NCBI GenBank assembly: GCA_019057635.1
Contig: DXJL01000095.1
Location: forward strand, 1-25,614
Length of the DNA stretch: 25,614 bases
Source of the DNA: Candidatus Heimdallarchaeota archaeon
GTDB lineage: Archaea; Asgardarchaeota; Heimdallarchaeia; Hodarchaeales; Hodarchaeaceae
Direction of reading: 5' to 3'
The notes below the pieces were generated by a model. That model was not told where the DNA came from. It worked only from the letters and a program-made list of their open reading frames with translations, and made no database searches. The number at the start of each line of letters is the position of its first letter. Positions within the stretch are counted from its first letter, which is position 1. Positions 3,207 through 25,614 of this stretch are shown here, one piece after another. The position numbers and the translations under genes were made by a program.

Positions 3207-4493
3207 ATGGTAATACAAGCAGATTTTGTCATAATTAATGCAAATGAACTAGTGACATTAGCTGGTTCAAGCGAAACTCCTCGTACTAAAGAAAAGATGA
3301 AGGACCTACAAATTGTGAATAATGGAGCGGTAGCTGTTAAAAATGGAAAAATAGTGGCTGTAGGCGCAACAGATGAAGTATTAGGACAAATAGATGAAGG
3401 ATATGAAGTTATTGATGCCACAAATAAATTAGTAACACCAGGATTGATAGATCCTCATGTTCATTTAGTTTTTGCAGGAACCAGAGAAGATGAATTAGAA
3501 AAAATGGCTGTATTAGGAATCTCATATTTAGAAATAAAAGAACAGGGAGGAGGAATGAATAAGTCCCTCAAATTGACATCTGAGACCAGTTTTGAGGATC
3601 AGATCAGAATAACCTCCAAAATATTGGATAAAATGCTCATTCACGGGACAACAACGATTGAAGCTAAAAGCGGATATGAAATGACTTTCCACGGAGAGAT
3701 TAAACAACTGGAAATAATTAAATCACTTAACGAATCTCATCCACTGGATCTAGTTCCCACTTTTCTTGCTCAAGGTATCCCACCAGAATATGAGGATAAT
3801 TCTGATTTATTAGTAAGTGAAATTGTCGAAAAATGGATTCCTGAGATCGCAAAAAGGAATCTAGCAGAATATGCTGATGTGTTTTGTGAAAAAGGGTATT
3901 ATAATCTTGAACAAACTCGTAGAATCCTACTCTCTGCTCGAAAACATAGCTTGAAACTACGGAATCATTGTGATTGGTTGGCTCATAGCGGAGGGACTCG
4001 ACTATCTGCTGAAATAGGGGATATTGTGTCAGTCGATCATTTAATTTGGACTCCTCTAGAAGAAGTAGACGCCCTTCAAGGACAAAAGACGATAATTGTA
4101 TTTTTACCAACATCCCCGTTTTGTTATGTGAATAAATACGCACCTGCGCGCGAAATAATCGATCGTGGAATGCCTGTTGCTTTAGCAACAGACGTGAGTG
4201 CGGCAAACATGTGTGAATCGATGCAAATGATGATGACGCTTGCAGTACTTCGTATGAAGATGACTGCAGCTGAAGCCCTAACTGCTTCGACTATAAATGC
4301 AGCCCACTCAATAGATCGAGCTCATGAAATTGGTTCAATAGAAGTAGGAAAAAAAGCAGATATTGTTATTTTTAATGCTCCTAATCATCGATTCTTTGCA
4401 TATAATTACGGTATCAACCTTGCAGAGAAAGTCTACAAAGATGGGAATTTGGTGGCAGTTAGAGGAAGAAGAACTGATTCAGATAGTTCATAA
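3207..4493 (+). CDS. hutI: Imidazolonepropionase-like amidohydrolase (divergent active site)
   Basis: PGLIDPHVHLVFAGTREDE, GTTTIEAKSGY, DVFCEKG, ALATD and GSIEVGKKAD motifs. It lies 22 nt after glnA and near hutH. Confidence 0.8.
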   Translation: MVIQADFVIINANELVTLAGSSETPRTKEKMKDLQIVNNGAVAVKNGKIVAVGATDEVLGQIDEGYEVIDATNKLVTPGLIDPHVHLVFAGTREDELEKMAVLGISYLEIKEQGGGMNKSLKLTSETSFEDQIRITSKILDKMLIHGTTTIEAKSGYEMTFHGEIKQLEIIKSLNESHPLDLVPTFLAQGIPPEYEDNSDLLVSEIVEKWIPEIAKRNLAEYADVFCEKGYYNLEQTRRILLSARKHSLKLRNHCDWLAHSGGTRLSAEIGDIVSVDHLIWTPLEEVDALQGQKTIIVFLPTSPFCYVNKYAPAREIIDRGMPVALATDVSAANMCESMQMMMTLAVLRMKMTAAEALTASTINAAHSIDRAHEIGSIEVGKKADIVIFNAPNHRFFAYNYGINLAEKVYKDGNLVAVRGRRTDSDSS

Positions 4494-4551: not shown

Positions 4552-7500
4552 CTAATTTTGCCTTAGATTTTTAGATCTTTTCAGAATTACAAGGCTTAAT
4601 AGCAACGACCACAACATGAAATCCCATTGAAAACCTGGACTTGTCTTAGTTTTCTCTGTTACCGTTCCTATGTTAAAAACAAACGAAATTGAGGCTGAAT
4701 TTCCTGCGAAATCATAAACAATCAATCGGATAGTGTAGGAACCTGTTTCATAATTGTCTGGAGTAAGGTCTTTTTCTATGTAATATCCTGAACCTGTAAT
4801 ATTTATTTTGGGATCATTAAATCCAATTTTATTACCATCGAGAGTCATTTCCGCAGAATATTGATCGATACCCGATCCATCATCGCGGAACCAGAATATA
4901 ATTTCAGTAGTTTCCGTCAGGAACGAATTGTTCTCCATTCCAAACATTCCAATGACGGGTGAAGTTTCATCGGTGATAATTTCAAAAGATACAACTTCAG
5001 AGTTCCATGTAAAGTTGAAAAGATGCACTCCTTGAGTTAGTGGGTAAGTAAAATTATACCAACCATTTAAACCAGTTTCTGGTATTTCTGTTGTTATATC
5101 GGACTCAACACCAAATGCAGAATTTCGATAAGATCCAGAAATGGTAACTGAATTATTTGGTACAAAATTCGTTGATGTGTGAAGTGAAACAGTTACACTA
5201 TCATCAGTTAATGTATACAACCCAAATAATTGGGATTCTGTATTAGCCCAAGTTAGAATATCTTTTACTAAAAGATTATTAAAAAGTGAGTTTTTATATT
5301 CAAAACCTTCATTTATCTCATTATTGTAACCACGATTGGTAATAAAATTACTTCCCGATACAACAACGACTCTTCCACCTAGGGGATAATCATAGGATGC
5401 CATTACAACATTCTCCCGTTTGTTCAGATAAGCAAGTGGGGTCGCAGTTTTTGTCAACTCAAAATAGGATCCAGATGCATCAAAATACTCTGTTGATGTA
5501 CCAATAGAATTGAAATGAGTTAATTGGCCAGGAATAGTACCTAAATACGGCGATAATTCACTTGTCTGAATGCCCCATTTTTTCATCATATTTTCCATTC
5601 CTATCGGGGTGGTATAAGGTGTGAGTATTAGCCCCCCTCCACTACTAACGAATGAAGTGATTGCGGATTGTTCGGATGCTGATAGAACAGTTAAAGTATC
5701 TTCGGATGTTACTAAATCAATTGCTGATACATATTCCCACGTTTGAGTTGTACGATTATCGGCAGCAAACCAAAGGACATCATAATTAGAAAGAGCTTGA
5801 GGAGTAATCTCAGAGTTATTTTCGTTAAGAACTATTCCTTGCTTACTTAAATCTATTTTTAGATCCAGAAATTCTCCCTTGGTATTATATGAAAACACTG
5901 GTCTATTCCCAGTATAAAATAATACTTTTTGTTTGGCAGGTTCCACATTTATTGTGAAGTGAATCCGTTGGATTTCTGTAGAATTAACTTGAAACAAAAT
6001 ATCTCCAGAATAAAGCCCGAGTGGCTCATTATCTGCAACATTCACTGCGAGAACAATATCATGTGAGAAGTATTCACATAATTTACTTGTTGCTAAATCA
6101 CTGTGGCTACTCATTAAGGACTCAGAATCATTGACCCACTGTTGTTCTTTCAACGTAATAATTGAAGAAAGATTTCCAGTTATCTGGATGGACACATTCA
6201 CAGTTTCTGATGATGTGAACGAAAATAATTTAGAAAAGTAGGAACCTTGAAGCACGTTAGGAAATTTCGTAAACCTTAATTCTTTAGGATTGATGATTCC
6301 TGCTAGTATATGATTTCCAACTCTTGGAGCAGCCAAAAGATATTCATACGCGGCTGAGGCATTAACCTGACCTGCGCCTTGTGCGTTTAGGTCCACTCCA
6401 ATATCTGTAGCAGTAGCCATAAGTGCAGCTTTTATCGTTCCAGGGTTTACATCAAGATTATGTTCTCTCATTGCTCCAAGAAGAATCGCTGAGACACCTG
6501 CAACATGAGGAGCGGAAAATGATGTACCTTGAGGGGTACCATATCCACTTTGCACAGCGGGAGTTGGAACAGCAGTACCTGGTGCAACCACATCAGGGGA
6601 AACTGCATCTGTCCTCCAGATGGGACCACGACTGCTATAAGTTGCCATTGCTTGCATTCCTTCATTTGTTGCTCCAACAGTAATTTCATCTACAAAATTA
6701 TCAGCAGAGATTGTATACATAGTTCCCCCATCATTACCAGCGGAATGTACAAAAATTACTCCTTGTTTTGCTGCTTGACGAATTGTGGCTAATCTTAGTT
6801 GATATCCAGGGTATAAAATCAAGTCCCAATAAGCTTCATCGCCATCTGAGATCCCATAACTCCGATTAATGACATCTACATCATTTTCTATTGCCCAATT
6901 AATCGCAGCAATTTCACCTATTAGAGTCATATCTAAGTGATCTTCTGGGCCTTCATCAACATCGGCATCTAAAATCCACGATTCATTAGCTATCCCTTGG
7001 TTACTCGCTGTTTGAATTCCACCACCAGCGGCAATCCCAGCGACCCATGTGCCATGAGATCCTGCAATATTATCCAAATCTTTCTCATTACCATAAGTAG
7101 TATTAACAAATCCCTCTACTGCTTTGATACGGGATGTACCATTTGCAAAACTAAAATCAGGATGACTAGCATTTATACCTTCATCAATTATACAGATTGT
7201 CGTCCCTTGTCCTTTATAACCTAGCTCCCATAATTTATCTACACCAATAACCTGAGCTGATGTGAATGATTGAACAGATGGATTAATAAATGAATTTTGA
7301 TCGTGTTGAGAATTGGGAATAAAGTTACCCTTATTACCCGAAGTAACAGGATAAAAGTTCTGATATGCTAGATATGCATTCTCTCTTACTATTGAAGCTA
7401 ATTCGGGGGGAGTAGCTTTGATTGTAGCTCCTAAAAGTCCGTTAAAATTAAGCTCTGTATCATATCTAGATGTGAAACTAGTATATTCAGATGATTTTTC

Positions 7501-7710
7501 GAAGAAAATCAAATAGATACTCTCTTCAGTCCCTTGAATTTCTAGAACCTCTTTTTCTAAGACCTCCACCTCTTTGGAAATACTTGAAATATCAATCATT
7601 TGCTCTGAAGATGAGATATTCAAAATAATATTGGATTTACTTGTTAAAATCACAAAAAGTAATATGAAGATTGGTGTAAATTTTAGTAACTTGCAATACC
7701 TTGTCATCAA
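4552..7710 (-). CDS. Secreted/surface-anchored S8 (subtilisin-like) serine protease with SKI-1/S1P-like accessory domains and C-terminal PGF-type sorting/TM segment (ATG at 7707)
   Basis: Hydrophobic N-terminal signal. Catalytic triad motifs IIDEG, SHGTWVAG and GTSFSAPHVAG, with oxyanion SAGNDG. C-terminus is TSPGF, then a hydrophobic helix, then basic KRSK. Confidence 0.9.
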   Translation of the reverse strand: MMTRYCKLLKFTPIFILLFVILTSKSNIILNISSSEQMIDISSISKEVEVLEKEVLEIQGTEESIYLIFFEKSSEYTSFTSRYDTELNFNGLLGATIKATPPELASIVRENAYLAYQNFYPVTSGNKGNFIPNSQHDQNSFINPSVQSFTSAQVIGVDKLWELGYKGQGTTICIIDEGINASHPDFSFANGTSRIKAVEGFVNTTYGNEKDLDNIAGSHGTWVAGIAAGGGIQTASNQGIANESWILDADVDEGPEDHLDMTLIGEIAAINWAIENDVDVINRSYGISDGDEAYWDLILYPGYQLRLATIRQAAKQGVIFVHSAGNDGGTMYTISADNFVDEITVGATNEGMQAMATYSSRGPIWRTDAVSPDVVAPGTAVPTPAVQSGYGTPQGTSFSAPHVAGVSAILLGAMREHNLDVNPGTIKAALMATATDIGVDLNAQGAGQVNASAAYEYLLAAPRVGNHILAGIINPKELRFTKFPNVLQGSYFSKLFSFTSSETVNVSIQITGNLSSIITLKEQQWVNDSESLMSSHSDLATSKLCEYFSHDIVLAVNVADNEPLGLYSGDILFQVNSTEIQRIHFTINVEPAKQKVLFYTGNRPVFSYNTKGEFLDLKIDLSKQGIVLNENNSEITPQALSNYDVLWFAADNRTTQTWEYVSAIDLVTSEDTLTVLSASEQSAITSFVSSGGGLILTPYTTPIGMENMMKKWGIQTSELSPYLGTIPGQLTHFNSIGTSTEYFDASGSYFELTKTATPLAYLNKRENVVMASYDYPLGGRVVVVSGSNFITNRGYNNEINEGFEYKNSLFNNLLVKDILTWANTESQLFGLYTLTDDSVTVSLHTSTNFVPNNSVTISGSYRNSAFGVESDITTEIPETGLNGWYNFTYPLTQGVHLFNFTWNSEVVSFEIITDETSPVIGMFGMENNSFLTETTEIIFWFRDDGSGIDQYSAEMTLDGNKIGFNDPKINITGSGYYIEKDLTPDNYETGSYTIRLIVYDFAGNSASISFVFNIGTVTEKTKTSPGFQWDFMLWSLLLSLVILKRSKNLRQN

Positions 7711-8069
7711 TGGTTATTCCACGTTTTTATTTTTTTTCAACGCCGATATACAATTCGTCGGTGATTAAAGTACCCAGTACACGTTCTCTTATTTTACCTC
7801 TAAATTCTTTCCTAAGTGTAAAAACGGACTCATTCTTTCGAATTCAAACCAGAATAAATACATTCCCAAATAAATGTAATTGATGAATTTAGATAATTAA
7901 AAGAACCTTTTTATTCACAAAAACCTTGTAATTCTTGTTTTTTCGCTCTTAACTCTGATTCAATTAAATCGAGTTTATTCAATTATTCCTTAAAATGATT
8001 AAAAGAGAATAATAATACGCATAAAACAAATTTCTCGAATAAAGGCAATTAGAATGATTTAAATATGGA

Positions 8070-8083
8070 ATTACACGTGTAAT
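8070..8083. promoter_or_regulatory. Perfect 14-bp palindrome ATTACACGTGTAAT in the divergent protease/SNARE-like intergenic region
   Basis: Self-complementary sequence read directly. A role as a TF site is inferred. Confidence 0.35.
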
Positions 8084-8210
8084 AATCAAAAGAAATCAAA
8101 ATCACTCTCATGTGGTTTTATTGTCTGTTGAATTCCTAATCATAAACATTTAGAACATTAAATAAGTAACAGGGAAAGAAAGCAATATTAAAGAGATTGA
8201 GGCTTAATTT

Positions 8211-8930
8211 TTGGCTTTACTGACAAATATATTAGCAAAATGGTTTAAAAAACCAGCTGAACCAACAGAAAAGGAAATGATTAAAGATTTCATTCAAGAA
8301 CTTGACTCAGTCCTAATGTCTATGGAAGAAATGACAGAAGATATGACAAACGGTTTTAGCAACCAGGTAATTCAACGACGACCACTCTCGACAAAACTCA
8401 TGACTTATTTACCGAAATTTATGCAATCTAAAAATACTCGGTCCCAAAATGAGAAATTAATTGAATTGAAGAATACAAAACAGAAAATGCATACATTAAG
8501 GGGAACATTATCTAAAATTGATGAATCTGTTGATTCAATGGATCTCCATGCTGCTCCCCTTGAGGGAGAAGAGGTTGGGAATAGAATATACGAGCTTGCC
8601 TATCCTGGAGAGGCAATAACCTCTTCAAAAGTGGGAACATTAGAGGAAAGGCTGCAAATGCTTGAAAATTCGTTTTTAGCTTCAATGGACCAAATAAATG
8701 GGCAGATGAATCAGATTTCATCAAATTTACTAACACTGACTCAAAGACTTGAGGAACAAGGGGTAAAAATAGACCGTATTGATGAAAAAATTACCGATGT
8801 TCAATCAAAATTACAAAAAATCCAATCTACTTTGGCAAAAATATCTCGGAAACTGACTCAAAACAGAACACTATTAGCACTTTTGGTTGGGTCTGTAATT
8901 GCTCTCGTGATTGTCATAGTCATCCTTTAA
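8211..8930 (+). CDS. Tail-anchored coiled-coil protein with Q-SNARE-like motif (syntaxin/Qc-like)
   Basis: Residues 159-211 give a 3-4 heptad of 16 layers with central Gln (LEEQGVKIDRIDEKI), then a basic linker and a C-terminal TM helix ending at the stop codon. Confidence 0.75.
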   Translation: MALLTNILAKWFKKPAEPTEKEMIKDFIQELDSVLMSMEEMTEDMTNGFSNQVIQRRPLSTKLMTYLPKFMQSKNTRSQNEKLIELKNTKQKMHTLRGTLSKIDESVDSMDLHAAPLEGEEVGNRIYELAYPGEAITSSKVGTLEERLQMLENSFLASMDQINGQMNQISSNLLTLTQRLEEQGVKIDRIDEKITDVQSKLQKIQSTLAKISRKLTQNRTLLALLVGSVIALVIVIVIL

Positions 8931-9067
8931 GCGTAAAAGAATACTGAAAATGTTAGTTAAAATGAGACCCCAGAAAATATAAGAAAAAGAATATAAGGAA
9001 TAAGGAAAATAAGGATTGTTGAGCGGAAGAATGAATAGAAGGTTATACAGAATTAGGTGAAGACTGG

Positions 9068-9541
9068 ATGCAACAAAGAGACGAAATACACCGCGAGTTA
9101 ACTCGTCTATTAAAAAGTGATACATCAATTAAAGTGACTTTACTAGGTGATAGAACAGGTTTAACGATTGCTAGAGCCTCAAGACTATTAGTATCAGCAA
9201 CTATGGGAGCATTTGATCTTGAAAGTATTGGAGCGATTGCTTCTGCTGTGTTTTGCGGTGCAGCAGAACAAGGAAGTGCCTTAACTCTTGGGGAGCTTGG
9301 TATTATGTTGGCTGAATTCACCGATGGCAAAATATTGACCGCTCAAAGTGGAGAAAGAGGAGTTTTAGTAGTAGTCGCAGAATCAGATGCTCAATTGGGG
9401 TTGATCCGAATGCGGATGAAAGAATCATCAGAGTCGTTAGCCTCACTCATGGATAGATTAATAGAGCCATCTACCGTTAAAATGAAGAAACCCGAATCTC
9501 AATCCATTATGGCCGCACTTAAAGAACTCGAAAACTTTTAA
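9068..9541 (+). CDS. Roadblock/LC7 (MglB-like) domain protein
   Basis: LLGDRTGLTIA, IGAIASAVFCGAAEQGSALTLGEL and LVVVAESDAQLGLIR fit the roadblock fold pattern. GGTGA SD lies upstream. Confidence 0.88.
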   Translation: MQQRDEIHRELTRLLKSDTSIKVTLLGDRTGLTIARASRLLVSATMGAFDLESIGAIASAVFCGAAEQGSALTLGELGIMLAEFTDGKILTAQSGERGVLVVVAESDAQLGLIRMRMKESSESLASLMDRLIEPSTVKMKKPESQSIMAALKELENF

Positions 9542-9557
9542 CCATCCAACGATTACA

Positions 9558-9566
9558 TTTTTTTTC
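9558..9566 (+). terminator. Oligo-T tract, candidate archaeal intrinsic terminator after the roadblock gene
   Basis: T-run about 17 nt after the stop codon at 9541. Confidence 0.3.
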
Positions 9567-9636
9567 TGCTACATTTATGTTATTAGTAATATGTAAATCA
9601 CTTTAATTTATGTAACTAGATATAGAAGGTTTAGAA

Positions 9637-14491: not shown

Positions 14492-15127
14492 ATGCCAATG
14501 AAAGAACATACTCCACAGAATACAGAAAATAATTCAAATTTCTATGACATTGATAAACAAATTAAAGAATCTGACTCAAAAAATGTCAAGATACTAACAA
14601 ACAGTAAATCCATGGATAGCAAATCAAATCAAATCAGTGAAGCAGAGGAACTAGAAAGCCAAATTGAGAAGCTACAAGAAGAGCTAGAAAAACAGGAGAA
14701 GAATAATCAAAAAGACAAAAAGCGTTATCTCCGTGCATTAGCTGATTATGAGAATCTTGAGAAGAGAACAAAAGCTGAAAGGTCAAGATTCTTAAAAAAT
14801 GCTAATGCTAATCTTCTGACAAAACTACTTGAGCTAGCAGACACGTTAGAAAAAGCAAAATCAAGCTTTCTTGATTCCTCGACTAATAATGATGTACTCA
14901 AAGAAGGTTTTCTAGCAATTGAAAGACATTTTTTTAGTATCTTGAATAATGAAGGAGTTGAAAGGCTAGAATGTATTGGAAAAAAATTCGATCCAGCTTT
15001 CCATGAAGCTGTCTTCGTAAAAACAGATTCCGGAGAGGAAGAAGAACAAATTCTAGAAGAAGTTCAAGCTGGTTACACACTGAACTCTACCTTATTACGA
15101 CCTAGTAAAGTAATAATTGCAAAATAA
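14492..15127 (+). CDS. grpE: Nucleotide exchange factor GrpE
   Basis: YLRALADYENLEKR, FDPAFHEAV and GYTLNSTLLRPSKV motifs. Directly upstream of dnaK. Confidence 0.96.
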   Translation: MPMKEHTPQNTENNSNFYDIDKQIKESDSKNVKILTNSKSMDSKSNQISEAEELESQIEKLQEELEKQEKNNQKDKKRYLRALADYENLEKRTKAERSRFLKNANANLLTKLLELADTLEKAKSSFLDSSTNNDVLKEGFLAIERHFFSILNNEGVERLECIGKKFDPAFHEAVFVKTDSGEEEEQILEEVQAGYTLNSTLLRPSKVIIAK

Positions 15128-15148
15128 AAATATTAAGGTGAACACAAA

Positions 15149-16981
15149 ATGCCTAGACCAATTGGTATAGATTTAGGAACGACATTTTCTGCCATAGCCA
15201 CAATGGAAGGTGGAAAAGCAAAGATTATTCCCAATGCGGAAGGTCAGCGAATTACTCCCTCTGTAGTATCCATATCGAAAGAGGGTGAACGAGTAGTTGG
15301 AATACAAGCTAAAAGACAAGCTGTTTCCAACCATGAGAGAACAGTTAGATCCATAAAAAGAGAGATGGGAACTAATTATACAGTGACTATTGATGGAAAG
15401 GTCTATAAACCTCCTGAAATAAGTGCAATGATTCTACAAAAACTAAAAAGAGATGCTGAGGCTTATTTGGGTGAAACTATTATCCAAGCAGTAATTACCG
15501 TTCCAGCGTATTTTTCTGATTCCCAACGTCAAGCTACAAAGGATGCTGGTAAAATTGCGGGATTAGAGGTTCTAAGAATTATTAATGAACCCACAAGTGC
15601 TTCTTTAGCTTATGGAATGGACAAAGAAGAAGAATCGACAATTCTTGTTTTTGACTTGGGTGGTGGAACATTTGATGTTTCAATATTAGAATTATCCGAG
15701 GGTGTATTCGAGGTAAAAGCAACATCAGGTAATAATAGACTTGGTGGAGACGATTTTGATCAACGAATAATTGATTGGATGAGTGAAGAGTTTAAAAAAC
15801 AAACTGGGTTGGATCTTTCGAAAGATGCAATGGCATTACAACGATTGAGAGATGCAGCAGAACAATCAAAAATTGAGTTATCACAAAAAACTTCCTCAGA
15901 GATCAATTTACCATATGTTTATGCTGATAACACTGGACCTAAACATCTGAATCTTTCTCTTACAAGGTCAAAATTTGAAATTATGATCGCTGATCTCATT
16001 GAAAAAGCTATGGGTCCTACTCGACAAGCCTTAGCCGATGCAAAACTTAAGCCTTCCGAAATTGATAAGATTTTACTCGTTGGTGGTTCTACTCGTGTTC
16101 CTGCCGTACAATCAGCATTACGTAACTATTTCAATAAAGAACTAACAAAAGAACTTAATCCTGATGAATGTGTAGCTCTGGGAGCAGCCATTCAGGCTGC
16201 AATTATAACTGGGGAAGTAAAAGATGTTTTGTTACTCGATGTAACTCCATTATCCTTAGGGATAGAAACTCTAGGTGGAGTATTTACTAGGTTAATTGAA
16301 AGAAACACTACTATTCCAACTCATAAGAGTCAAATCTTCTCTACTGCGGCTGATAATCAACCATCAGTTGAAATCCACGTATTACAAGGGGAAAGGAAAA
16401 TGGCCACAGGGAATATAACCCTAGGCAGATTCCAATTGGTCGGAGTACCTCCCGCTCCTCGAGGCGTTCCACAAATTGAGGTAAGCTTTGATATTGATGC
16501 CAATGGAATTGTAAATGTATCAGCAAAAGACCTTGGAACTGGAAATGAGCAGAAAATAACCATTAAGAGTGATAGTGGCCTTTCAGAAACAGATTTCAAG
16601 AGAATGGCTGAGGAAGCAGAAAAATACAAGGAAGAAGATAATAAACGATTGGAAGAAGCTGAAGCACGAAATAAAGCAGATTCACTTGTCTATCAAGTCG
16701 AAAAGATGATTAAGGATTTGGGTGAACAAGTGGATGCTACAACAAAAAGCAACGCAGAGAGTACGATTGAATCACTTAAATCATCTTTACAGAGCGGAAA
16801 TATTCCAGATGTCATTAAAAAGAGTGAAGATCTAGAGAAAATTGCACATGAATTAGCACAGAAACTTTATGCTCAACAAGCTCCACAAGGAGCACCAAGT
16901 GCAGGTTTTCAAGGTGCTCCATCAGGTCAAGATGACTCTGAAGTTGTAGACGTTGATTATGAGATTGTCGATGAAGAGTAA
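15149..16981 (+). CDS. dnaK: Chaperone DnaK (Hsp70)
   Basis: [38 protein letters not shown] and GVPQIEV motifs. GGTGA SD upstream. Confidence 0.99.
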
Positions 16982-17013
16982 TTGCAAGCCTAAGAATTTA
17001 TCAGGTGATATGA

Positions 17014-18162
17014 CTGAGTAGAAACAAAAAAGATTACTATGAGGTTCTTGGTGTCCAAAGGGATGCAGATGTTAAAGATATCAAGAAAGCCTTTCGAACT
17101 TTGGCTCGGAAATATCATCCTGATATGAACCCTGATGATCCAAGTGCAGAAGAGAAGTTTAAACAAGTAGCTGAAGCATTCGAAGTATTATCTGATGATG
17201 AAAAACGGCCTATATACGATCGGTATGGTCATGAAGGCTTATCAGGCGCTTCATTCAGAGATTTTTCAGGCATGGGGTTAGATGATCTTTTTGGTGGTTT
17301 TGGTATATTTGAAAATATCTTCAATGCCTTTGGAGGCGGAACTCAAGCTAGGACTTCCCGTTCTCGTGCGAGACGTGGCCAAGATGTAAGGCTTAACATT
17401 GATCTCTCTTTCGATGAGGCAATGAAAGGAATAAAGAAGTCAATCAAAGTCCCTAACTGGGCACAATGTCCTGTATGCCATGGCAATAGAATCAAAAAAG
17501 GCGAATCACTCATTAAGTGTAGTACCTGTGGTGGAGTAGGAGAAGTGCGTCAGGTTCAAAGAACGGCCTTTGGGCAGATGATAAATATTACTACTTGCCC
17601 AAAATGCCGTGGAGAAGGTGAGATATTGAAAAAAGGGACAGAATGTGAGACTTGCAACGGAGTTGGCAAAGTTAAGCAAACTAGAACTGTTGAAGCTCAT
17701 ATCCCTGCAGGGGTTGATACAGGAATGCGTGTGGTAGTTCAAGGAGAGGGTAGACCTGGTGAGTTGGGAGGACCTTCTGGGGATTTATATTTGGTAGTAA
17801 ACATATCCCCTCATCCTTTCTTCCAAAGAAATGGTGCGGAAATTATTCTGGAATATCCGATTAGTTTTCTTGACGCCGCGTTAGGTACTAAACTTACAAT
17901 TCCTACAATTAATGGAGACGAGAAAGTTACAATCAAACCAGGTACTGAATCTGGGAAAATAATTACCCTTAGAAAAAAAGGTGCCCCTAATCCTAATAGG
18001 TCTGGTCGTGGCGATATGCACATCGGAATTACTGTAAAATTTCCTAATAAATTAGAAAAAAGTGTAAAACAAACATTGCAGAAACTTCAAGAAGAAGATG
18101 AGGCAAAATATGTATTTAGAAATAATCCTGGATTAGCTAAATACTTAGGTTCCCAAAAATAA
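17014..18162 (+). CDS. dnaJ: Chaperone DnaJ (class A Hsp40); true start lies upstream of the track call, probably CTG at 17014
   Basis: Frame is open from 17014: (L)[17 protein letters not shown]...LARKYHPD J-domain, G/F region and four CxxCxG repeats. An in-frame TGA at 17011-17013 bounds it. Confidence 0.95.
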
Positions 18163-22958: not shown

Positions 22959-23594
22959 TTATTTAGAAATAGGATTAATAGCTTCATTTGTTTGGTAACG
23001 TTCATAAACTTTTTCAACATAACCAAACTCTTCAATTAGTTCATGAATTCTTGTCGACTCAATATAGATTTCACAGGTCCATAAAATCAAGTACGCAGTA
23101 ATCATATGCAATTGAGGTGTAACTGATTCCTGTATTTCGAATAGGATCTGCTTACGTAGAGCGAGCTCTGTTTCATACATATCAATTATTTCTCGAATGG
23201 TATTTTCAGCTTGATCTATAATCTCTAAATCATGAGGCCATTCATCATTATCTTTTGCTGCTCGATTTTTCGCTGGTTGAAGGATATCACAGCGAAAGCT
23301 TTGCTCTATTTTTCTCATCTCGCGAATTACATCTTCAAAATGAGTTAAATAAGCATTCAATTCCGTAATGTGTCTATTGATAGATTCTGCAAGATTATAT
23401 GCTAGTCTGCCCTGTACATCATCAAACATAGTCTGTATTGCTTCAGAAAAGACACTTGATCTTTGAGTCAGGTTAAATCGTGATAAGATATTGAGTACCA
23501 TGTTTACAGTTCGTAACGACTGGCCTTGAACGGTGGTCCATTTTTTTTGAGAGATTTGTAACCTCTTTTTAAAGACCCGAATGCTCTGACTCAT
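22959..23594 (-). CDS. Helical-bundle protein resembling eukaryotic CINP / C1orf109 (AIRIM)
   Basis: KWTTVQGQSLRTVNMVLNI and IIDMYETELALRKQIL...AYLILWTCEIYIES parallel the conserved CINP segments as recalled (KWETLN...ANNIANL; MYRKELLLKR...SYLSMWLHQPYVES). Confidence 0.65.
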   Translation of the reverse strand: MSQSIRVFKKRLQISQKKWTTVQGQSLRTVNMVLNILSRFNLTQRSSVFSEAIQTMFDDVQGRLAYNLAESINRHITELNAYLTHFEDVIREMRKIEQSFRCDILQPAKNRAAKDNDEWPHDLEIIDQAENTIREIIDMYETELALRKQILFEIQESVTPQLHMITAYLILWTCEIYIESTRIHELIEEFGYVEKVYERYQTNEAINPISK

Positions 23595-23854: not shown

Positions 23855-25614
23855 TTGGCTAAAACGTACCAGATCTTATTGTGGACATTACTACTGACAT
23901 TTTCTTATAGTATTGACAATTCAGTTTATATAACTGACAATGCAACCGCTTTCACTTTCAAATCACTCTCTACCAGCGTAGATTTTACCAATTTTACCAT
24001 TATTCAATCAGGAATTCCTCAGGAAGGCGTTTTTACAAGCGAGAATCGCACTCATTACTGGAAACTAGAAAATGTAAATCAAAGTCAAGTTGTATATCTT
24101 TCTCTCTCTCCTCACAATGGTAATCAGAAAGAAAATCTGACTGTGGATTTATTTCGTCCATCAGGTGAGAGTTACTCACAAATCCTTGAACCCCCCGTGG
24201 ATTCTACTGATTATCTTACTTCTTGGTCAGCAAATGAAGATGGAGATTGGATTATTCAGGTTGACGACACAAGTGAGCCACCTGTCCTAAATTTGACCTA
24301 CACCATTCTAGTGATCATTCCGTCTTCTGCATTTAGTCTACCATCTGCTCCCTATATCACTACTACTCCAACTACAGCAAACTTTTCGATTAGCCATGAA
24401 AGTCATTATTGGAAAGTATTATTGGAAAAAAATCAAGTTGGAGAAATAAATCTTAAAGAAATCACCCCTACTGTCCTACGAGAATCTATAATTACTATTT
24501 TTCGTGAATTAAATCCTCAAAACCCGATTCTTTTGCCTTTTGTTATTTTACAGAATAATTATAGTTATTCATGGAATGCTCCCGCCTCAGATACATATTT
24601 CGTTAATATTACTCATAAAGCAAAGCAGGGTTTCCTTGGGCAGTATAATATTTCTTTTACTGCGGAAAAATTTGGATATAGTTTTGAAACAGCACAAGAG
24701 ATACCCTACAATCAAACATTCGCAGTCAATGTAGATCAGGGATTCATTCCAAAGAAACACTACTATTTTATGTTTAAAGTAAACGAAAGCCGAACTTTGA
24801 TAAACATCCGTGTTTTTGAGATGGATTCAACAGCTTCTACGATATTGGATTATGCAATTGTCGAAATCTATGATGAGGGTCGCCAAAGGCCAAAGCTGAC
24901 CATAAATGAAGTTTCACAAGATAGGGATGGTCAAATCAACATCTCAAAGAGACTTGATACTGGCATTTATTATTTAGTTGTTACACCAGAATCTAACGAA
25001 GTAGGAGTTTTTCATATATTTCTAGGATATCGACTTCCACAACCATTTGTATGGAATATTCCTGCGATCCTTCTAACCATTTGTGTAATCGTACTATTTC
25101 CAGTTTATTTGATTTATCTCGATTCAAAAGGAAAATGGTACCGTGTAAATCAATGGAATGTTGCTAGCTCTATCCAAAATACTTACAAAATCTTTCGAAA
25201 CAGTTTCAAAGGAATTTACAATATCAAAGAAGTACCTAGTGACTCAATCTTAATTCATATTGCTAGCATTCCATTTCGAACCTATGTCATTCTAAATTTT
25301 GTTGAGTCTTCTGAGAATGAAACATTAGTCTTTTCAAAACGTATTAACCGTAAATATGAGTGGGGGATCTATGTTCTAATAGGTCTATCTGTATTTGATG
25401 CATTAAATATTGGGGTCTATCTTTTATTCTCAGTACAATTTCTCCCCATATATTTTGCCAATCTGACATCTTTGATTTTATTTTTAACCATTCCAACAAT
25501 TTCACTGTTGATTATTGTATTATTCACCAATGGATCTTCATATATGACTTACAGCCAAGTCCATAATCGAATCTCGTATATAATACAAAATTTTGAGGAT
25601 TCAGAAGAAAACAC
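23855..25614 (+). CDS. Large membrane protein, 3'-truncated and not in the ORF track: signal peptide, about three PPC-like beta-sandwich repeats, TM, soluble loop, two more TMs
   Basis: Manual translation of frame +2 from TTG 23855 (MAKTYQILLWTLLLTFSY...) stays open for about 586 codons to the window end. Repeats contain THYWK / SHYWK / KHYYF and FETAQEI. Hydrophobic IPAILLTICVIVLFPVYLIYL segment. Many N-x-S/T sequons. Confidence 0.85.
   Translation, partial: MAKTYQILLWTLLLTFSYSIDNSVYITDNATAFTFKSLSTSVDFTNFTIIQSGIPQEGVFTSENRTHYWKLENVNQSQVVYLSLSPHNGNQKENLTVDLFRPSGESYSQILEPPVDSTDYLTSWSANEDGDWIIQVDDTSEPPVLNLTYTILVIIPSSAFSLPSAPYITTTPTTANFSISHESHYWKVLLEKNQVGEINLKEITPTVLRESIITIFRELNPQNPILLPFVILQNNYSYSWNAPASDTYFVNITHKAKQGFLGQYNISFTAEKFGYSFETAQEIPYNQTFAVNVDQGFIPKKHYYFMFKVNESRTLINIRVFEMDSTASTILDYAIVEIYDEGRQRPKLTINEVSQDRDGQINISKRLDTGIYYLVVTPESNEVGVFHIFLGYRLPQPFVWNIPAILLTICVIVLFPVYLIYLDSKGKWYRVNQWNVASSIQNTYKIFRNSFKGIYNIKEVPSDSILIHIASIPFRTYVILNFVESSENETLVFSKRINRKYEWGIYVLIGLSVFDALNIGVYLLFSVQFLPIYFANLTSLILFLTIPTISLLIIVLFTNGSSYMTYSQVHNRISYIIQNFEDSEEN

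Follow-up and report, generated by a model that had tools for sequence, protein, structure and literature searches.

We analysed a window of 25,614 nt (~36% G+C), the whole examined stretch of contig DXJL01000095.1 from Candidatus Heimdallarchaeota archaeon (assembly GCA_019057635.1), and found at positions 8211..8930 of the forward strand a whole gene coding for a 239-aa tail-anchored SNARE-like protein. We consider this protein, with a probability of about 0.9, to be a 96.7%-identical ortholog, encoded in a closely related genome, of the published protein HPS1 (Heimdallarchaeota prototypic SNARE 1), and to be, like it, a homotetrameric tail-anchored SNARE-like protein. The gene begins with a TTG codon (8211-8213) and ends with the stop codon at 8928-8930. 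In an alignment of 39 close relatives, the homologues begin at the same position and the residues L8 and W11 are invariant, in support of the TTG start.

The N-terminal helical region (residues 1-142, 8211..8636, forward strand, as are all parts of the gene), for which AlphaFold2 (AF2) predicted helices at residues 20-54, 59-64, 74-109, and 123-130, precedes a SNARE motif of 53 residues (159-211, 8685..8843). The motif is followed by the basic linker SRKLTQNR (residues 212-219, 8844..8867), recognizable in the translation and in the family alignment, and by a C-terminal transmembrane anchor (residues 220-239, 8868..8927) with the sequence TLLALLVGSVIALVIVIVIL, identified by hydropathy and by alignment with the transmembrane helix of VAMP2. 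The anchor is hydrophobic throughout (its 20 residues have a mean Kyte-Doolittle hydropathy of >2.0) and ends at the stop codon, leaving no luminal tail.

Judging by layer spacing, the motif is made of 16 heptad layers, numbered -7 to +8, which fall at residues 159, 162, 166, 169, 173, 176, 180, 183, 187, 190, 194, 197, 201, 204, 208, and 211 in alternating steps of 3 and 4 and are occupied by M, I, M, I, L, L, L, Q, I, I, I, V, L, I, L, and I, respectively. The glutamine Q183 (8757..8759, CAA/CAG codon), placed at layer 0 by the spacing and by the family alignment and followed by G184, is the sole polar layer, with seven layers on its N-terminal side and eight on its C-terminal side. An earlier reading of the same DNA, made from the letters and translations (hereafter the sequence-only reading), had described these 16 layers, the position of the glutamine, the short basic linker, and a transmembrane helix without luminal tail; the residue spacing and the hydrophobic run at 220-239 bear out the whole description.

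As a chance control, we used the 9,607 stop-to-stop frames of at least 60 aa (1,461,050 residues) of the window's own genome (3.19 Mb in 214 contigs, 91.6% complete). The strict layer pattern, defined as 15 out of 15 layers in VILMFA with Q or R in the center, occurred once in these frames, in the open reading frame (ORF) at 8211-8930, and was absent from 200,000 shuffles of residues 150-216. When the pattern was relaxed to 14 out of 15 layers, there were eight matches genome-wide, and the ORF at 8211-8930 was the only one with hydrophobic last 20 residues. The 16-layer pattern of this ORF is not due to chance.

A word-indexed search retrieved 67 homologues with 54 to 100% identity, nearly all of them 231 to 266 aa long and four shorter (167 to 217 aa). 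The labelled ones belong to metagenome-assembled genomes of Heimdallarchaeota or Hodarchaeales, with a few other Asgard labels, and in their source annotations the homologues appear as "hypothetical", FlaC, RecN, or "chromosome segregation ATPase". Q183 is invariant in the 39 close relatives (39/39), and so are residues K214 to R219 of the linker (KLTQNR) and much of the transmembrane helix. Distant representatives of the HPS family (26 to 41% identity) align with the window protein from end to end, and in an alignment of 20 sequences that includes them, 17 carry Q at layer 0 and 3 carry H (P0076, P0087, and P0096, in the Q183 column of alignment A2), while G184 (20/20) and K193 are invariant. 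The zero-layer glutamine, whose conservation the sequence-only reading had singled out as a point on which it could fail, is therefore retained by every close relative and by most of the distant set.

Probable orthology with HPS1 and the experimental record

Among 18 loci found in a scan of species-representative genomes, the closest gene is that on contig NJBF01000020.1 of Candidatus Heimdallarchaeota archaeon B3_Heim, an organism with the NCBI taxid 2012493. Its 239-aa product is identical to the window protein at 231 of 239 residues (96.7%; 97.6% for the DNA of the gene). The eight substitutions (residues 9, 36, 51, 65, 94, 124, 135, and 142) are confined to the N-terminal region, and residues 143-239, comprising the motif, the linker, and the transmembrane helix, are without any change. 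HPS1 is the protein PWI47941.1, whose source is given as "Heimdallarchaeota archaeon B3-JM-08" under the same taxid, 2012493, and its SNARE-like region was delimited at aa 159-211, with constructs covering 150-216 and 150-209 (Neveu et al., 10.1101/810531). Subsequent work on HPS1 made use of an F155W mutant, assigned Q183 to layer 0, and had crystal and molecular dynamics chains of residues 157-215 (Bentahar et al., 10.64898/2026.10.19.760048). In our family alignment, the columns of F155 and Q183 do not vary and carry the very numbers published for HPS1, and the length of 239 aa, F155, Q183, and the motif at 159-211 are all equal in the window protein.

The taxid and the residue numbering together argue strongly that the B3_Heim gene is HPS1 itself. 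Since the window gene is nearly identical to the B3_Heim gene, and the taxid and residue numbers of the latter fit HPS1, we take the window protein to be an HPS1 ortholog. The two genes also share their neighborhood (S8 protease, Roadblock, transcription factor TFE, and polyprenyl synthase). This kind of protein is thus already known and published, and its recovery here is a rediscovery that adds one more nearly identical member to the family, of which HPS1 is the most thoroughly characterized protein. The proposal of the sequence-only reading, an archaeal tail-anchored proto-SNARE with a glutamine at layer 0, agrees with HPS1 as described in the main texts of the two papers.

HPS1 was originally discovered with hidden Markov models of the SNARE subtypes (E < 1e-4) combined with a tail-anchor filter, and its SNARE region was reported to form complexes with syntaxin-1, the SNAP-25 helices, and synaptobrevin in native gels, substituting for the R, Qb, or Qc helix in the neuronal complexes (10.1101/810531). 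According to the main text of the later preprint, HPS1 is alpha-helical with a melting temperature of >90 °C and behaves as a 34-kDa tetramer in size exclusion chromatography with multiangle light scattering. Its crystal structure at 2.4 Å, solved by molecular replacement with syntaxin-6, is a parallel bundle of four helices, homotetrameric and fourfold symmetric, whose 16 layers run from -7 to +8, with four Q183 residues surrounding a water-filled cavity at layer 0 (10.64898/2026.10.19.760048). In HeLa cells and fibroblasts, eGFP-HPS1 was directed to the endoplasmic reticulum. The same text counts ~50 known Heimdall SNAREs, usually one per genome, which branch as a clade separate from Qa, Qb, Qc, and R, and mentions rare duplications (10.64898/2026.10.19.760048). 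The legend of its Fig. 4 names two Asgard archaea in culture that have their SNAREs marked on the tree. HPS2 (OLS22354.1, from Heimdallarchaeota LC_2) and other Heimdall SNAREs are described in the papers as having the same N-terminal helices, a motif with a polar center, and a C-terminal transmembrane helix. Because residues 143-239 are identical, the four-helix assembly shown experimentally for HPS1 can be carried over to the window protein.

Predicted assembly and likeness to eukaryotic SNAREs

The sequence-only reading had suggested modelling the protein as a homotetramer, and the prediction came out in its favor. Four copies of residues 150-216 gave a score of 0.84, while the best of three controls scored 0.00. 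This mark was attained for 20 out of the 30 proteins solved in pairs, compared with 1 out of 23 solved as single chains, counts that serve only as a rough benchmark for a run with a custom alignment and four copies, and the model may have memorized solved SNARE bundles. Contact agreement among the runs was at least 98%, with a predicted local distance difference test (pLDDT) value of at least 87 for the partner chains. The modelled tetramer brings the same residue of different chains into contact (187-187, 190-190, 194-194, 197-197, 201-201, and 204-204). Since these same-residue contacts are at layer positions, the model indicates that the layer residues form the interface of a parallel, in-register bundle.

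As for the N-terminal region, the AF2 monomer model, built from the 39-sequence alignment, is of mediocre quality (mean pLDDT 67.6, predicted template modelling score 0.60). It shows two long N-terminal helices (20-54 and 74-109) plus short ones and a break of the motif at 183-189. A Foldseek search of this model against the PDB gave no matches at E <= 0.001, and the top of its results was occupied by designed "maquette" four-helix bundles, with no syntaxins. The sequence-only reading had considered a Habc-like bundle for this region, and a three-helix N-terminal bundle has been predicted for Heimdall SNAREs in both papers (10.1101/810531; 10.64898/2026.10.19.760048). Our monomer model, which is uninformative on a Habc domain or a closed conformation, did not reproduce such a bundle, and a Habc-like arrangement is not supported here.

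In searches against solved structures with the single sequence, the top match was the R-SNARE synaptobrevin-2/VAMP2 (3hd7_A, E 0.0024). The alignment runs without gaps over residues 156-238, that is, through motif, linker, and transmembrane helix, and puts Q183 opposite the layer-0 arginine. VAMP2 (3hd7_A, 2kog_A) is thus the best match among solved structures, with layer 0 in register, but it differs from the window protein in having Arg instead of Gln at that layer and in entering a QabcR heterotetramer rather than a homotetramer; the window protein has, in addition, a helical N-terminal region of 140 residues. Syntaxin-6 shares with the archaeal protein the Q at layer 0 and the tail-anchored topology. 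However, its match was weak (2nps_D, E 0.15 with the single sequence and E 0.094 with the family profile), and nothing places the archaeal protein in Qc. The syntaxin-6-like Qc subtype suggested by the sequence-only reading is accordingly not supported, since VAMP2 scores better than syntaxin-6 and the published tree sets the family outside all four types (10.64898/2026.10.19.760048). Chemoreceptor or phage coiled coils were also considered and discarded: chains of methyl-accepting chemotaxis proteins matched with E values of 3 to 4.5 (single sequence) and 0.3 to 0.4 (profile), worse than the SNAREs.

In a six-frame search of the whole genome, the gene was the best match for both PF05739 (23.2 bits, next 14.0) and PF00957 (23.8 bits, next 13.4), although it was still below the cut-off of each model. 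As to whether SNARE profiles match better than generic coiled coils, this result and the VAMP2 match speak in favor, and those with the Pfam models and the family profile, to which we now turn, against.

The case against, rival explanations, and distribution

A number of results weigh against reading the gene as a SNARE. All the Pfam matches fall below the gathering cut-offs (PF12352, 21.7 bits for a cut-off of 27.1; PF05739, 19.3 for 26.8; PF00957, 19.2 for 26.4), and while V-SNARE_C, SNARE, and Synaptobrevin are among the five best models, HAP1_N ranks first. Over the 39 members, matches to DUF1664 (37), DUF7310 (29), and COG6_N (28) stand against those to SNARE (28), V-SNARE_C (23), and Synaptobrevin (8). 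With the family profile, VAMP2 (E 0.052) and syntaxin-6 (E 0.094) come below designed coiled coils and viral proteins in the PDB. A phmmer search of 1.84 billion representatives gave 27 matches at E <= 0.001, mostly of ~230 to 250 aa and near full length, which were not individually identified; one protein in this set has 2,049 aa. The equation of the B3_Heim gene with HPS1 was made through the taxid and the numbering and not through comparison with the accession sequence, and PWI47941.1 is not among the cluster members listed for 10 homologues. On the experimental side, the main text of the 2026 preprint states that membrane fusion has not been demonstrated for any Heimdall SNARE and that the HPS1 complex was resistant to murine NSF (10.64898/2026.10.19.760048).

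The genome inventory points partly the same way. The SNARE gene is single copy, and no second SNARE-like gene or longin match was found in the genome. Sec1/Munc18 (SM) proteins gave no match either, in a search that remains unvalidated as the control genomes gave none, and SNAP yielded only TPR-like matches at noise level, as it did in 10 of 14 controls. By these searches, no eukaryote-type heteromeric QabcR set with SM proteins and NSF/SNAP recycling was detected. Of the partners that the sequence-only reading had proposed to look for, ArsA/Get3 was found, with a strong match of 280.7 bits. CDC48_N gave four matches over the cut-off, corresponding to four Cdc48-type genes; like the single copy and the ArsA/Get3 gene, they stand on the side of the SNARE reading.

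Considering all these scores, kinship with eukaryotic SNAREs seems real but marginal by sequence, and the profiles are inconclusive about membership in the SNARE superfamily, for which the architecture and the published biochemistry and structure have to be called upon. Because the Pfam results come close to showing no SNARE model above generic coiled coils, an outcome that the sequence-only reading had itself named as adverse, the case rests on the experimental record of the family.

If the window protein works as HPS1 suggests, its C-terminal helix would sit in the membrane and the 53-residue motif would face the cytoplasm, where four parallel copies would zip together in register to give a highly stable bundle of 15 hydrophobic layers around a central ring of four Q183. 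Copies placed in two apposed membranes could then, by zippering from the N to the C terminus, pull these membranes together. Such a primitive homotypic device for fusion or docking is a tentative extension of the reading, to which we give slightly less than even odds. Insertion into the membrane might follow the archaeal Get3 (ArsA) pathway, and recycling might be carried out by one of the Cdc48-type ATPases of the genome.

The strongest rival explanation, which we nevertheless hold to be improbable, is that of a generic tail-anchored coiled coil that came to resemble SNAREs by convergence and serves at the membrane as a scaffold or tether without fusion activity. It would account for Pfam and PDB profile scores that fail to set SNAREs apart from other coiled coils, for homologues annotated as FlaC, RecN, or "chromosome segregation ATPase", for a genome in which SM (by the unvalidated Sec1 search), longin, and a second SNARE were not detected, for the histidine at layer 0 in three distant members, and for a family without demonstrated fusion. 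However, convergence would have to produce the whole architecture common to SNAREs, with a motif of 53 residues, layers in the arrangement 7+1+8, a linker that is short and basic, and a transmembrane helix at the end of the chain, as well as the gapless alignment to VAMP2 with layer 0 in register and a lead of ~10 bits over the rest of the genome for two SNARE models. Two published results, the complexes formed together with neuronal SNAREs and the crystal structure for which syntaxin-6 was the molecular replacement model, also argue against it, as does the restriction of the family to the archaeal class held nearest to eukaryotes.

Within this class, Heimdallarchaeia, we detected the SNARE gene in 37 of 83 genomes. 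It is present in five families (19/21, 2/2, 1/1, 3/3, and 11/12 genomes) and absent from two (0/31 and 0/12), where five genomes rechecked at E <= 1 gave only noise. Two SNARE-like genes stand in tandem on the same strand in one genome of the same order (locus L055; G069:C473:2993-3691 and 3760-4461), in line with the rare duplications that the 2026 preprint mentions; this duplicate and the layer-0 histidine are departures that we observed from the common family pattern. The patchiness might recall a eukaryotic SNARE gene gained by horizontal transfer, as proposed for the SNAREs of Legionellales, and so not ancestral; yet this is very unlikely for a single-copy gene spread over five of the seven families with divergence down to ~26% identity, without a close match to any eukaryotic subtype, placed outside Qa, Qb, Qc, and R (basal) in the published tree, and with a homomeric 4Q layer unlike that of any eukaryotic complex (10.64898/2026.10.19.760048).

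Gene neighborhood and significance of the family

Downstream of the SNARE gene by 137 nt, and on the same strand, there is a Roadblock/LC7 gene (9068-9541, PF03259, 28 bits), beyond which lie a TFE-alpha-like gene, a polyprenyl synthase and a HAD hydrolase, both on the reverse strand, and DUF7121. The order SNARE-Roadblock-TFE was found in 17 of the 18 named loci, the contig of the 18th ending just past the SNARE gene. In 29 further loci, Roadblock adjoins the SNARE gene in 18, comprising all 17 from the same genus and one of the two from the same order. The other 11, with no Roadblock match at E <= 1e-3 within 1.5 kb, are the remaining same-order locus and all 10 loci of three distant families. 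Where it follows the SNARE gene in Hodarchaeales, Roadblock is on the same strand, ~140 to 500 nt downstream, and is better conserved than the SNARE (84 to 99% versus 55 to 96% identity). Since TFE and polyprenyl synthase are also retained in the Hodarchaeales block, the adjacency is equally well explained by ordinary synteny. As to expression, 21 sequencing runs matched window positions 8000-9600, one of them recorded as RNA, and four were compared (X18, X2, X3, and X10). From the RNA run, X18, came only two contigs of 151 nt, located on the Roadblock gene (9042-9192 and 9264-9414), which as contigs are uninformative on the transcription or cotranscription of the SNARE gene.

In two other families of Heimdallarchaeia, the gene next to the SNARE codes for a protein of ~346 aa. 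It was found, in three orientations, in all nine loci with sequence at that place (L056:291-1355, L057:315-1352, L058:2356-3420, L060:2374-3411, L061:166-1275, L062:1-880, L063:229-1269, L064:2346-3389, and L065:260-1306). The protein has 43 homologues, those with names being from Heimdallarchaeia only, with 42 to 47% identity between the two families, and there are homologues elsewhere in the window's own genome (C34 and C106). Pfam at E <= 1 gave only noise for it, the PDB only a designed toroid repeat matching residues 299-339, and the ESM Atlas only chance-level hits (scores <=0.81, TM <=0.31); its AF2 model is poorly defined (pLDDT 54.2, predicted template modelling score 0.32). In the family in which none of 31 genomes has the SNARE, 30 of them carry this protein. 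Its distribution thus does not follow that of the SNARE, and the case for a functional link is weakened.

The longin domains of eukaryotic R-SNAREs are relatives of the Roadblock fold, and this makes a Roadblock protein attractive as a partner. It is conceivable, but unlikely, that either the Roadblock/LC7 protein or the ~346-aa neighbor binds or regulates the SNARE as a genomically linked partner. If true, a prokaryotic SNARE would have its first candidate regulator. Roadblock, gene neighbors, synteny, and operons go unmentioned in the main texts of both HPS1 papers, supplements aside (10.1101/810531; 10.64898/2026.10.19.760048).

On the other side of the SNARE gene, and divergent from it, is a gene for an S8 subtilase of 1,052 aa with a hydrophobic C-terminal segment (4552-7710, reverse strand). 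The spacer between the two genes is AT-rich and measures 500 nt, and the subtilase is found upstream in only 5 of the 18 named loci, with 46 to 91% identity. Elsewhere in the window, we identified a chaperone cluster grpE-dnaK-dnaJ (GrpE, Hsp70, and DnaJ; 14492-18162, forward strand) and an ORF of 211 aa (22959-23594, reverse strand) that matches PF15011 (C1orf109-like ribosome biogenesis) with 39 bits for a cut-off of 27 (E 9.6e-10). PF15011 is a largely eukaryotic family, and this ORF may be another eukaryotic signature protein. Three further ORFs of the window (245, 365, and 475 aa) and one that is open at its 3' end (23855-25612) had no Pfam family at E <= 1e-5.

What may be new here is minor: the histidine variants of layer 0 (a word absent from the main text of the 2026 preprint, 10.64898/2026.10.19.760048), the figures for the specificity of the layer pattern, the absence of the gene from two families, and the conserved neighbors as possible leads toward partners. 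The significance of the gene belongs to the published family, described in 2019/2020 and provided with a crystal structure in the 2026 preprint. In eukaryotes, SNAREs form the core machinery of membrane fusion, and how they originated is relevant to the rise of the endomembrane system. Of the candidates now at hand for the ancestral state, the best is a homomeric SNARE coded by a single gene in those archaea that stand nearest to eukaryotes.

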